This document shows positions 4,517-8,590 of a DNA stretch of 11,902 nucleotides, in pieces. The translations under genes were made by a program, and so were the position numbers. Source of the DNA: an uncultured archaeon (lineage in GTDB: Archaea; Asgardarchaeota; Njordarchaeia; Njordarchaeales; Njordarchaeaceae); assembly GCA_965367995.1 (NCBI GenBank), contig CBDULE010000028.1, positions 1 to 11,902 of the forward strand, given 5' to 3'. Under the pieces are notes generated by a model. That model was not told the DNA's origin, made no database searches, and worked only from the letters and a program-made list of their open reading frames with translations. Positions within the stretch are counted from its first letter, which is position 1. Every line of letters begins with the position of its first letter.

Positions 4517-7500
4517 ATGAAATATAAGATACCTAAGCGTCTTGTAGGGATAACCTTTGGGATACTTTCACCTGATGAGATTAAGAAAATCGGGGATGTC
4601 AAAATTAGCCAACCAGAATTATATAGTGAGAGGGGAGAAGGGTTCCCTGGTGGTCCATTAGATCCTCGCTTAGGGGCTCCTGATAACGTGAATAGATGTA
4701 AAAAATGTGGTTTGAGAAGAATTGAGGGAACAACTGGTTGTCTAGGACATTTTGGACATATAGAATTAGCTAAACCAATATACCATCTTGGATTCGTTAA
4801 ACATATTGAAAAGGTGTTAAATGCTGTCTGTGAAAGGTGCGGAAGATTAACACTCCCTCCTGAGAAAAGAGATGCTTATTGGAAGAAGATGGAAGTATTT
4901 ATAAAGAGATATGGGTATCCAAGCTTTGATATTGCGAAGGAGATATTAGCTGAGGCTGCTAAAGTTAAAAAATGTCCTTATTGTGGACATGAAAAATTAG
5001 GAAAATTTGTTTTTGATAAAGATAATCTCACATTCATTAAGAGGATAGAAATTAGTGAAGAAGAGCTTAAAAAACGTGAATGGATGGAATTTATAAGAAA
5101 TCTTGGAATACCAGCTCATATAAGAAAGCTTAGTGTAAGCAAGGGTAAGAAAAAAGGGAAAAGATACATCAACATTTACTACAATCCTGAAAGCATAAGA
5201 CAAATTCTATCGCAAATATACCCAGCAGAAGTTCTTCCTGAAGATGAACTGAAAGAAAGAAGAAAAGATGTTTTCTTAATAGGATTTCACCCAGATCATG
5301 CTAGACCAGAATGGACTATTCTGCAGGTACTTCCTGTACCTCCTATAACTGTCAGACCTCCTGTTATCACTGCGGAAGGGAAGAGAACGGAAGATCAGCT
5401 AACACTAATTTTGAGGGATATAATTAGGATTAACGAACAATTAATGAGCAAATCTAAAGGAGGCCCACCACAAGTTATAGAGAATTTGTGGAATCAACTG
5501 CAAAAAAGAGTTAAGGCATTATTCGGGCTTCATAAGTTAGGAGAACTTAAGATGGAGAGAACTTATGTTAAAGGAATAATTCATAGACTGTCAGGAAAAG
5601 AAGGAAGGTTTAGACATAATTTAAGCGGAAAGAGAGTGAACTACTCTGGAAGGGCTGTTATATCACCCGATCCTTATCTTAGTATTGATGAAATAGGCGT
5701 TCCTGAAAAAATGGCTAGAAAACTTCTGTTCCCAGAAGTGGTAAATGAGCTTAATAGTGAAAAGCTCAAACAGCTTGTCATAAATGGCGCAGCCATCTAT
5801 CCTGGCGCAGAATTCGTATATAAAAAGCAAGCTCCTGGAGTTTATAGGAAGATAATGGTTGGTATATTTAAGGATAGGAAGAAGAGGGAAGAAATAGCGC
5901 GTGATCTCAAACCAGGAGACATTGTTGAGAGGCATTTAATGGATGGAGACATTTTAGTTTTTAATAGACAACCAACACTTCACAGAATATCAATGATGGG
6001 GCATTATGTAAGAGTTCTACCTTATAATACCTTAAGGCTTCATCTGATGACCTGTCCACCATATAACGCAGACTTTGATGGCGATGAGATGAACGTACAT
6101 TTGCCTCGCTCATATGAAACAAAAGCGGAGATTATGACTTTAATGGAAGTTAAACGTCATATAATAACAGCAAGATATGGAGGTCCCATAATAGGGCCTA
6201 AACAAGATTTTATAACTGGAGCTTACCTTCTAACAAAACCTGGTTCTATCCTAACTAAAGAAGAATCACAACAAGTTCTCTTCTATGCTGGAATTGAAGA
6301 ATTGCCTAAAGAATCAATTAATTATGATGGTATAGAAGCTTATGATGGTAAAAAGATTTTCTCAATGATTATACCTAAGTATATCTTTTACCAGAAAGAC
6401 ATAAAGGGAATACTTGTCGGAAAATCTGCAAAAGAGAAAGTTAAAACCGTGATTTGGAACGGAGAATTAATTGAAGGAGTTATAGAGAAGGGAGCGATAG
6501 GAGCTGAAAAGCCAGAGAATATAGTTCATAAAATTGTAGAAAGATGGGGAAACGATGCTGGAAAGAGATTCCTTAATAGTTTATCATCAATGATTATAAG
6601 ATTTCTCACAGATAGAGGATTCAGCTTAACCTTATGGGACATTATTGTAGCTTTAGAGGCTAGGAAAGAGGTACTTGAGAAAATCAATGAAAAACTTAAG
6701 GAGGCAGAAAAGGTTGTTGAGTTATATCTTAAAGGAGAGTTGGAACCAGAACCTGGAAAGAGCCTTGAAGATACATTTGAGGATAAATTAATTGAAATCT
6801 TAGATCAAGCAAGAAATGAAGCCGGAGAAATAGTAATATCGCGTATGAATCCAGAGAGTCAATTTGGGATAATGACGCTAACGGGAGCTAGAGGAGATGA
6901 AACAAACATTGCTCAGGTTCTTGCATGTATAGGACAACCAGTGGTTAGAGGAAAAAGATTGAAGAGAGGTTATAGCAATAGAACATTACCGCATTTCAAA
7001 GAGAAAATAGGTATATTTGCTGGAGGATTCGCAAAAGGAAACTTTGCAATAGGTATGAGCCCACTTGAATATTTCTTCCACAATGCAGCTGGGAGAGATA
7101 GTCTAGTGGATACAGCGGTCAGAACAGCTGACAGCGGTTATTTCTATAGAAGATTGGTTAACGCACTTCAAGATAGTAGAATAGAGTATGATGGTACCGC
7201 TAGAATGATGAGTGGGCAAATACTTCAGTTTAAGTATGGAGGGGATGGTGTTCATCCGGGAAAGAGTTATCATGGGAAGATTGCTGATTACGAATCAATA
7301 TTTTATGAACTATTAGTACGTGAAGAAGAGAATGGTAAAAGAATTAAGGAAGTATCAGAGTGGCCTAAATACTATGATGAATTTATTCAGAGATTACGCA
7401 ATGAGATTTCATATGCTGTTGCTTTAGATGTAAAAGAACTCCTCAAAAGAGAATTTGAAAATGGTAATATACTAACAGAAGGATCGATACAAGAATTCTA

Positions 7501-8590
7501 TAAGAGGTTAAAAGAAAAATATGAGAGAGCTCAGATAGATCCAGGAGAAGCAGCAGGAACTGTTGCTGCGCAATCAATTTGCGAACCTGCAACACAGCTC
7601 ACTCTGAGAACATTTCACTGGGCTGGTGTTGCTGCATTTAGCATTACCACAGGATTGCCGAGACTTAAAGAGATCTTCGATGCCGTAGAAAAACCGAGTA
7701 CACCAATGATTACAGTATACCTAAAAAAGGATTATGCGTATGATGAGAAGAAGGCATGGAAAATATTTGATCAAATTAAAGGAATCAAACTCGAGGACAT
7801 TATAGTACAGGGGGGAATGATCATTAACCCAGTCGAAGATTATGTCGAAATAAGAATTGATAGAACGGCCATAATATCGAAGGAGAGCAGTGCTGAAGAC
7901 AAAATGAAAACAAGTAAACATAATGTTTCGCTTGAGGAGATAATTAATGCGATAAATAGAATTGGGAAAAATGTTAGGGTTGAGCAAGACCCTCAGGATC
8001 CATATGTTCTTTACGTCTATCCTGGAGAGAACATGAATGTAATAGAACTCTATAAGAAGCTCAGAAATCTTGTTATAAAAGGACAAAAAGAGTATACTAG
8101 AGCGCAGATAAGAAAGCAAGAAGGCGGAGAATATTATATATTGATCTCCAGCACAGAACTAACACCACTGCTATACATGGAAGGAGTTGACATAAGCAGA
8201 TTAGAAACAAACAATATACACCAATTTGCAAAAATATTTGGAATTGAAGCCGCTAGAAGGCTAATAGTCAAAGAAGCAAGGGATGTCCTTGAAGGATACG
8301 GTCTAGAGGTCGATGTGAGACACATTCTTTATGCAGCTGATGCTATGACATTACAGGGTAAAGTAGAGGCGATAGGTAGGTACGGTATTGCTGGAAAGAA
8401 GATGAGTTTACTTGCAAGAGCTTCGTTTGAAGAAACTGGAAAGCACTTATTCAGAGCGGCTGCGGTCGGAATGTTTGATCCGCTTCAAGGCGCAACTGAA
8501 AATGTTATTGTTGGAGGCGTACCTCCTGTAGGAACTGGAGTGGTAAGACTTGGTTTCATGAAGAGGTTTAAGGTTGAAGAGGGCGAATGA
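4517..8590 (+). CDS. rpoA: DNA-directed RNA polymerase largest subunit, unsplit (A'/Rpo1N and A''/Rpo1C portions in one 1357-aa ORF)
   Basis: A'-type motifs:
- FGILSPDEI at the N-terminus
- Zn sites CKKCG...CLGHFGHIEL and CERCG...CPYCG
- RPEWTILQVLPVPPITVRP
- GKEGRFRHNLSGKRVNYSGRAVISPDP
- FNRQPTLHRISMMGH
- the catalytic NADFDGDEMN (6065-6094)
- bridge helix FFHNAAGRDSLVDTAVRTADSGYFYRRL

A''-type motifs follow in the same frame:
- PGEAAGTVAAQSICEPATQLTLRTFHWAGV (trigger loop)
- GLPRLKEIFDA
- GIEAARRLIV...VDVRHI...LARASFEETGKHL. Confidence 0.93.
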   Translation: MKYKIPKRLVGITFGILSPDEIKKIGDVKISQPELYSERGEGFPGGPLDPRLGAPDNVNRCKKCGLRRIEGTTGCLGHFGHIELAKPIYHLGFVKHIEKVLNAVCERCGRLTLPPEKRDAYWKKMEVFIKRYGYPSFDIAKEILAEAAKVKKCPYCGHEKLGKFVFDKDNLTFIKRIEISEEELKKREWMEFIRNLGIPAHIRKLSVSKGKKKGKRYINIYYNPESIRQILSQIYPAEVLPEDELKERRKDVFLIGFHPDHARPEWTILQVLPVPPITVRPPVITAEGKRTEDQLTLILRDIIRINEQLMSKSKGGPPQVIENLWNQLQKRVKALFGLHKLGELKMERTYVKGIIHRLSGKEGRFRHNLSGKRVNYSGRAVISPDPYLSIDEIGVPEKMARKLLFPEVVNELNSEKLKQLVINGAAIYPGAEFVYKKQAPGVYRKIMVGIFKDRKKREEIARDLKPGDIVERHLMDGDILVFNRQPTLHRISMMGHYVRVLPYNTLRLHLMTCPPYNADFDGDEMNVHLPRSYETKAEIMTLMEVKRHIITARYGGPIIGPKQDFITGAYLLTKPGSILTKEESQQVLFYAGIEELPKESINYDGIEAYDGKKIFSMIIPKYIFYQKDIKGILVGKSAKEKVKTVIWNGELIEGVIEKGAIGAEKPENIVHKIVERWGNDAGKRFLNSLSSMIIRFLTDRGFSLTLWDIIVALEARKEVLEKINEKLKEAEKVVELYLKGELEPEPGKSLEDTFEDKLIEILDQARNEAGEIVISRMNPESQFGIMTLTGARGDETNIAQVLACIGQPVVRGKRLKRGYSNRTLPHFKEKIGIFAGGFAKGNFAIGMSPLEYFFHNAAGRDSLVDTAVRTADSGYFYRRLVNALQDSRIEYDGTARMMSGQILQFKYGGDGVHPGKSYHGKIADYESIFYELLVREEENGKRIKEVSEWPKYYDEFIQRLRNEISYAVALDVKELLKREFENGNILTEGSIQEFYKRLKEKYERAQIDPGEAAGTVAAQSICEPATQLTLRTFHWAGVAAFSITTGLPRLKEIFDAVEKPSTPMITVYLKKDYAYDEKKAWKIFDQIKGIKLEDIIVQGGMIINPVEDYVEIRIDRTAIISKESSAEDKMKTSKHNVSLEEIINAINRIGKNVRVEQDPQDPYVLYVYPGENMNVIELYKKLRNLVIKGQKEYTRAQIRKQEGGEYYILISSTELTPLLYMEGVDISRLETNNIHQFAKIFGIEAARRLIVKEARDVLEGYGLEVDVRHILYAADAMTLQGKVEAIGRYGIAGKKMSLLARASFEETGKHLFRAAAVGMFDPLQGATENVIVGGVPPVGTGVVRLGFMKRFKVEEGE

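Follow-up and report, generated by a model that had tools for sequence, protein, structure and literature searches.

A one-piece gene for RNA polymerase's largest subunit, located apart from rpoB, in a Njordarchaeia archaeon and its relatives

The DNA analysed in this study, called the window below, is a stretch of 11,902 nucleotides (contig CBDULE010000028.1 of assembly GCA_965367995.1) from an uncultured archaeon of the Njordarchaeaceae, in the Asgard archaea. It contains rpoA, the gene that encodes RNA polymerase's largest subunit (RpoA, also called Rpo1), as one open reading frame (ORF). This ORF very probably encodes, as one polypeptide, the housekeeping Rpo1/RpoA of the single RNA polymerase of a Njordarchaeia archaeon, and the gene order around it is a trait of the lineage. 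The pair rpoB-rpoA is among the most stable gene pairs of archaea, and it is broken throughout the Njordarchaeia and Korarchaeota. The one-piece form by itself is of little import, being a published character of several phyla, and the gene is an ordinary ortholog.

The gene and the parts of its product (positions in nucleotides of the window or in amino acids, aa) are as follows:
4517-8590, plus strand: unsplit rpoA (Rpo1) gene, 1357 aa and stop (ORF list, translation, Pfam, NCBIfam)
aa 7-369, 371-545, 548-709, 739-831 and 846-1297, plus strand: Rpb1 domains 1-5 (Pfam)
4517-7309, plus strand: A' (Rpo1N)-equivalent part, aa 1-931, which aligns with Sulfolobus and Thermococcus Rpo1N to residue 874/880
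4697-4750, plus strand: first zinc site, C61-x2-C64-x10-C75-x2-H78 (invariant columns in the alignments)
4829-4984, plus strand: second zinc site, C105, C108, C153 and C156 (invariant columns in a 21-sequence alignment)
6065-6094, plus strand: catalytic metal-binding motif NADFDGDEMN, aa 517-526
7073-7177, plus strand: bridge helix region, aa 853-887, containing VDTAVRTADSGYFYRRL, with RTADSGY around aa 869
7310-7366, plus strand: A'/A'' junction, aa 932-950 (mapping on the solved split enzymes, and raw sequence)
7367-8587, plus strand: A'' (Rpo1C)-equivalent part, aa 951-1357, which aligns with Rpo1C residues 11-389 (also TIGR02389)
aa 1019-1053, plus strand: trigger loop, with HWAGV around aa 1034 (motif position)
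aa 1242 and aa 1299, plus strand: GIEAAR and LARASFEET, in the A''-equivalent part (motif positions)
7868-7906, plus strand: 13-aa insertion AIISKESSAEDKM, aa 1118-1130, in the A''-equivalent part (two alignments)

The ORF begins with ATG, has no internal stop, and contains the five Pfam RNA_pol_Rpb1 domains in order with E-values of 1e-21 to 1e-70. The NCBIfam equivalog NF006336 (archaeal subunit A') matched aa 3-934 and, with 940.7 bits, exceeded its cut-off of 819. TIGR02390 and TIGR02389 (subunit A'', aa 973-1345) scored below their cut-offs, which is expected because the protein is divergent and fused. In the alignments the metal-binding aspartates and both zinc sites occupy invariant or nearly invariant columns, and the columns of the trigger loop QLTLRTFHWAGV and of aa 853-887, which we take from established knowledge of Rpb1 to be the bridge helix, are largely invariant or nearly so. 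In its domains, motifs, bridge helix and trigger loop, junction frame and NCBIfam score, that is, in everything tested, the ORF is an unsplit A-type Rpo1, and its sequence departs in no respect from that of a working largest subunit. An earlier reading of the window from its letters (the original prediction) had described one uninterrupted 1357-codon ORF with the hallmarks of both A' and A'', and the ORF, Pfam, NCBIfam and motif positions bear this out.

Crenarchaeota and Euryarchaeota have these parts as separate subunits, A' and A''. Both parts of the window protein match Sulfolobus and Thermococcus Rpo1N and Rpo1C (PDB 2waq and 4qiw) residue by residue, with the same zinc sites, active site, bridge helix and trigger loop; these enzymes differ in having two genes and two polypeptides, with the split point at aa 932-950 of the window protein. 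Residues 169-874 of the 880 of Sulfolobus Rpo1N correspond to aa 228-931, and residues 11-389 of Rpo1C to aa 951-1346; these alignment limits place the junction. The mapped junction falls inside the interval 7290-7400 that the original prediction had singled out. In the raw sequence it is in frame and free of stops, and the stretch takes in part of a W-P-x-Y-Y-D motif conserved in the clade of Njordarchaeia and Korarchaeota. All 14 homologues of this clade that were aligned are continuous through the junction.

An exact look-up of the window protein gave no record, although the cluster collection contains it. Homologues were searched for among 5.8 billion proteins, and the best 120 were considered. 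All of these are one-piece proteins, each with all five domains. The nearest 13 (57-66% identity, 1344-1386 aa) include proteins labelled by NCBI as Njordarchaeales or Njordarchaeia, and one near cluster (P0009) includes the protein MEX2689782.1 of Ca. Njordarchaeum guaymaensis. Proteins labelled Korarchaeota form the next tier with 51-56% identity, and the third tier is a plateau at 40-43%, composed of Baldr-, Hel- and Bathyarchaeia and Nitrososphaeria proteins of about 1275 aa each. Identity to these relatives descends from 68 through 56 to 45% in the A' part and from 62 through 46 to 39% in the A'' part. Since both halves rank the relatives alike, the window protein is not a chimera.

RpoA of Njordarchaeales and Njordarchaeia (P0004, P0010 and the P0009 cluster, labelled subunit A' by NCBI) has the same length and junction as the window protein. 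The window protein differs from it in the additional 13-aa insertion AIISKESSAEDKM, in whose columns one of eight other Njordarchaeia-like sequences in the first alignment and none of 11 other sequences in the second has residues. RpoA of Korarchaeota (Ca. Korarchaeum cryptofilum, and the proteins P0021 and P0022 from metagenome-assembled genomes) is likewise one polypeptide, of about 1330 aa and about 52% identical. Unsplit RpoA of Bathyarchaeia and Nitrososphaeria agrees with the window protein in domain order and catalytic motifs, but its gene stands in the canonical order rpoB-rpoA-rpl30e-nusA, unlike that of the window. The gene of Korarchaeota is not beside rpoB. Thus the claim of the original prediction that unsplit genes elsewhere adjoin rpoB holds for Bathyarchaeia and Nitrososphaeria and fails for Korarchaeota. 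The rarity of unsplit RpoA that it implied was overstated. Table 1 of one paper lists unsplit RpoA for Korarchaeota, Thaumarchaeota and Caldiarchaeum (PMC3082918), and another describes an 'A-type' RpoA in Thaumarchaeota, Korarchaeota and Bathyarchaea, with both types among lokiarchaeal bins (PMC5484517). RpoA is scored as split or fused in the gene tables of Asgard archaea, according to the legend of Fig. 2 of a third (PMC6478937), and across the three papers the unsplit form extends to Aigarchaeota and, within the Asgard archaea, to a part of the group (PMC3082918, PMC5484517, PMC6478937).

No rpoB, rpoH, rpl30e, nusA or rps12 was found in the window by tblastn and Pfam, and small ORFs of the window examined as possible rpoH had no family match. 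This agrees with the original prediction, which had noted neither rpoH nor rpoB upstream and none of rpl30e, nusA and rps12 downstream. To compare locus contexts (loci are numbered with L), we used exact homologue look-ups, a genome-collection scan and a metagenome scan with clade-specific junction patterns, and all loci were searched with Bathyarchaeia RpoB and the window proteins. The genome-collection scan with the full protein relied on the universal DFDGDEMN pattern; the matches listed came from other phyla only, and it served as a background survey. Of the 79 listed loci of other archaea that have upstream sequence, 78 have rpoB directly upstream of rpoA, and it is upstream in 11 further metagenome loci from outside the clade as well. 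By contrast, with flanks searched up to 10 kb on each side, an RpoB match was present in none of about 20 Njordarchaeia and Korarchaeota contigs having at least 3.5 kb upstream (L001-L005, L007, L089, L090, L096, L100, L101, L104-L106, L108, L109, L111 and L114). Therefore, the uncoupling is a trait of the whole clade and not of the window alone. In the literature we found no explicit account of gene order for Korarchaeota or Njordarchaeia and no paper that notes loss of the rpoB-rpoA linkage, which is a detail of gene order.

The only exception among the listed matches is a locus of Hodarchaeota (L070 4335-8249, JBHLKP010000038.1), whose rpoA is split (900 and 399 aa) and whose 4.3 kb of upstream sequence has no RpoB match. 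Uncoupling of rpoB and rpoA therefore occurs also in a Heimdall-group Asgard lineage and is not unique to Njordarchaeia and Korarchaeota. Whether rpoB had stayed with rpl30e-nusA was tested at two loci reached via a Njordarchaeia NusA-like protein. In L094, from the same sample as L001, rpl30e-nusA is apart from both rpoA and rpoB, and the genes ahead of it are TYW3 and an Lhr-type helicase. In L091 the rpl30e-nusA cluster is preceded by the end of rpoA.

The genes around rpoA in the window are the following:
2899-3747, plus strand: 282-aa ORF, the second conserved upstream neighbour (ORF list)
3739-4227, minus strand: divergent 162-aa ORF with a TTG start, 158 aa from the first ATG (ORF list)
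4228-4516: AT-rich intergenic region of 289 bp between rpoA and the divergent 162-aa ORF
8595-9899, minus strand: convergent 434-aa FAD-binding protein with an FAD/NAD-binding N-terminus, called the reductase-like gene below
9959-10198, minus strand: ribosomal protein S27ae gene (Pfam)
10212-10493, minus strand: ribosomal protein S24e gene (Pfam)
10616-11902, plus strand: DNA topoisomerase VI subunit B (Top6B), running past the window end (NF003218, 391 bits against a cut-off of 274)
The divergent ORF, given as 158 aa, and the convergent flavoprotein were correctly named as neighbours in the original prediction.

Relatives in the Njordarchaeia have the same upstream genes as the window, and in most of their contigs the two are a conserved pair directly upstream. 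In L001/L002, L007, L101 and L104, rpoA has homologues of both the 282-aa and the 162-aa gene directly upstream, with their orientations kept, and the 162-aa homologue alone is beside rpoA in L008 and L090/L100. The 162-aa homologues upstream of rpoA have 33-47% identity (L001, L007, L008, L090, L100, L101 and L104), and the 282-aa homologue adjoins the 162-aa homologue in L001, L003, L007, L101 and L104. In L003 this pair is relocated about 6 kb downstream. The flanking genes of Korarchaeota differ, with rpl14 and a 450-aa ORF in L004/L005.

On the downstream side, some Njordarchaeia relatives keep rpl30e-nusA-rps12 after rpoA whereas the window does not. Behind the one-piece rpoA of L007/L008, L090/L100, L091-L093 and L104 come rpl30e, a NusA-like KH protein, rps12 and mostly rps7, and the position ahead of rpl30e-nusA-rps12(-rps7) is the canonical site of the housekeeping rpoA. 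The conserved upstream genes, together with these canonical downstream genes in relatives, make the window gene the ortholog of the housekeeping rpoA. The order seen in the window, that is, rpoA, the convergent reductase-like gene, S27ae, S24e and Top6B, is complete in L098 and L101. L099 and L103 have its start, with the reductase-like gene in the same position and on the same strand, and in L001 and L003 the distance between Top6B and rpoA is no more than 10 kb. RpoA, S24e, S27ae and Top6B of the syntenic contigs are 61-82% identical to those of the window. The reductase-like gene of the window is only 24-29% identical to those of L098, L099, L101 and L103, though position and strand are kept; either it evolves very fast or it has been replaced by a family member.

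Locus L101 (860-11768, Ga0190308_1000076) combines the order of the window with rpl30e and the NusA-like gene, which lie inverted just past the 282-aa gene. This order would result if the 282-aa/162-aa/rpoA block had been inverted once with respect to the ribosomal cluster, and such an event would explain the loss of the downstream ribosomal genes. A rough neighbour-joining tree gave no resolution between a single and a repeated origin of the gene order of the window type. Taken together, these gene orders show a gene inherited in place from the canonical rpoA, around which local rearrangements have occurred repeatedly.

Because the upstream gene lies on the opposite strand, rpoA needs its own promoter. 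At 4432-4442 the intergenic region contains the TATA-like TTTTTAAATAA, and at 4509-4513, 3 nucleotides ahead of the ATG, the Shine-Dalgarno-like GAGGT, which suggests that rpoA has a promoter of its own. We propose the following for the evolution and function of the gene. By the time of the last ancestor common to the sampled Njordarchaeia, and in Korarchaeota too, rpoA would already have been uncoupled from rpoB and placed behind a divergently transcribed gene, so that it would have had to rely on a promoter of its own. In some of the Njordarchaeia, the lineage of the window among them, later rearrangements would also have split rpoA from rpl30e-nusA-rps12 and given rise to the order rpoA, reductase-like gene, S27ae, S24e and Top6B. 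In the product, a conserved linker some 20 residues long connects the A' and A'' equivalents, with all catalytic elements intact; since they are intact, it is expected to pair with Rpo2 (RpoB) encoded elsewhere and to form the active centre as usual.

RpoA of Njordarchaeia and Korarchaeota shares at least five exclusive insertions or deletions (indels) in two alignments:
4697-4750, plus strand: zinc-loop insertion of 4 aa, shared with Korarchaeota (alignments)
5018-5200, plus strand: insertion in the clamp head, about 45-60 aa long (aa 168-228), in Njordarchaeia and Korarchaeota sequences only
5519-5563, plus strand: rebuilt rudder-region segment, which replaces the otherwise conserved DNExSGIPxAxHRSGR (alignments)
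5834-5878, plus strand: small insertions at aa 440-454 (alignments)
7310-7471, plus strand: junction motif W-P-x-Y-Y-D and a 5-aa insertion (alignments)
The zinc-loop, clamp-head, rudder-region and junction indels recur in Korarchaeota RpoA together with the W-P-x-Y-Y-D motif, though part of its clamp-head insertion is shorter than in the window protein. None of the Hodarchaeota, Baldr-, Hel-, Bathyarchaeia and Nitrosocaldus sequences compared, a set with thin Asgard sampling and only one Heimdall-group sequence, has these indels, and Bathyarchaeia and Nitrososphaeria RpoA lacks the clade-specific indels. The Sulfolobus and Thermococcus chains likewise lack the insertions in the zinc loop and the clamp head.

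Njordarchaeia have been placed inside the Asgard archaea, and their pull toward Korarchaeota has been ascribed to compositional bias (PMC12411855); indels and synteny are not discussed in that recent paper. The shared indels, together with the shared break in gene order, point toward common ancestry of the gene, either by descent or by transfer, and are not explained by compositional bias. It is possible, and we put it forward tentatively, that the indels and the lost rpoB-rpoA linkage reflect a true relationship of the two hyperthermophile lineages or an exchange of a core RNA polymerase gene between them. Because the Asgard sampling is thin, this signal is a lead and not a result. If true, it bears on the disputed Asgard placement of Njordarchaeia, and the linkage break and the exclusive indels could act as characters independent of substitution models in the debate of Asgard versus Korarchaeota affinity.

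It could be argued that the fusion is an artefact, in which separate A' and A'' genes lost their intervening stop and start to a sequencing or assembly error. Such errors are a general possibility in metagenome assemblies, and the opposite one is known in a related genome, where the gene is broken into two partial pieces. However, more than 30 independently assembled contigs (JGI, ENA, NCBI and Logan) have the same continuous frame, with the conserved peptide motif over the junction, so this explanation is effectively refuted and an artefact is excluded for practical purposes. The broken gene is that of a Njordarchaeia metagenome-assembled genome, in which MGQ4894686.1 (A', 911 aa) and MGQ4894687.1 (A'', 323 aa) lie on one 34.7-kb contig. 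Both are flagged partial and are at least 90% identical to the one-piece gene (P0009 cluster), and they probably imitate a split gene through a frameshift or a gap in the assembly. The original prediction had also left room for an additional, catalytically competent paralog, with the main rpoA'/A'' pair located beside rpoB outside the window. The window's lack of rpoB, rpoH and the downstream ribosomal genes would fit such a paralog. Nevertheless, every Njordarchaeia and Korarchaeota contig retrieved has this type of gene and none has another; the only pieces annotated as split are the two partial ones above, which belong to the 90%-identity cluster of the one-piece gene. Several relatives have the ortholog at the canonical site, upstream of rpl30e-nusA-rps12, and the upstream synteny links the window gene to these orthologs. 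The paralog thus finds no support, synteny having established orthology to the housekeeping copy, and we consider it very unlikely. The other alternative named in the original prediction, that the lineage's own rpoA is fused and has moved away from rpoB, is supported, as the same arrangement was found in all retrieved relatives of the Njordarchaeia and Korarchaeota.

A sole rpoA could also be foreign in origin, acquired by the ancestor of Njordarchaeia from Korarchaeota, or the reverse, in place of the original gene. Such a replacement would account both for the affinity to Korarchaeota (about 52% identity of Njordarchaeia RpoA, versus 40-43% to other Asgard and TACK proteins, and the indels exclusive to both groups) and for the absence of the rpoB-rpoA linkage in both, given that published phylogenomics puts Njordarchaeia within the Asgard archaea (PMC12411855). 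On the other hand, the canonical site upstream of rpl30e-nusA-rps12 is kept in several Njordarchaeia, which fits vertical descent in place, and the abstract of PMC12411855 reports an affinity to Korarchaeota for many Njordarchaeia markers and not for this one alone. The sole Heimdall-group sequence compared, that of the Hodarchaeota locus, also has no rpoB in 4.3 kb upstream. A replacement is therefore an unlikely origin of the gene. The preferred reading remains that of a housekeeping gene inherited with its locus, and it would be the only copy in the genome, as the synteny and the uniformity of all contigs seen suggest. Some points weigh against it: the sole-copy status and the whereabouts of rpoB and rpoH are judged from contigs, that of the window being 11.9 kb long, and the promoter is assigned from the sequence of the AT-rich spacer.

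Neither the 162-aa ORF nor the 282-aa ORF has a Pfam or NCBIfam match; the product of the latter looks like a membrane protein, judged from its hydrophobic stretches. Farther upstream lies one more gene:
1302-2642, plus strand: 446-aa protein whose P-loop NTPase matches (cobW and MobB families) are weak, none of them above its cut-off
The related loci retrieved yielded no homologue of this protein. Scans of the window for transfer RNA and Rfam families gave no match. The 434-aa protein is distantly related to digeranylgeranylglycerophospholipid (geranylgeranyl) reductases; its match to NF041080 (92 bits) is far below the cut-off of 580, and that to TIGR02032 is also weak.

Three freshwater metagenome contigs that matched the junction pattern carry very divergent Rpb1-like genes (L122 7574-11689, L125 436-4551 and L132) of about 1370 aa and 28-33% identity, with no rpoB in the 7.5 kb upstream in L122. 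These genes may be of eukaryotic or giant-virus origin. In the window itself, the convergent rpoA and reductase-like genes end in stop codons only 4 bp apart (8587-8600), which leaves no intergenic room for terminators; the first T-rich run, at 8613-8632, is inside the reductase-like gene.

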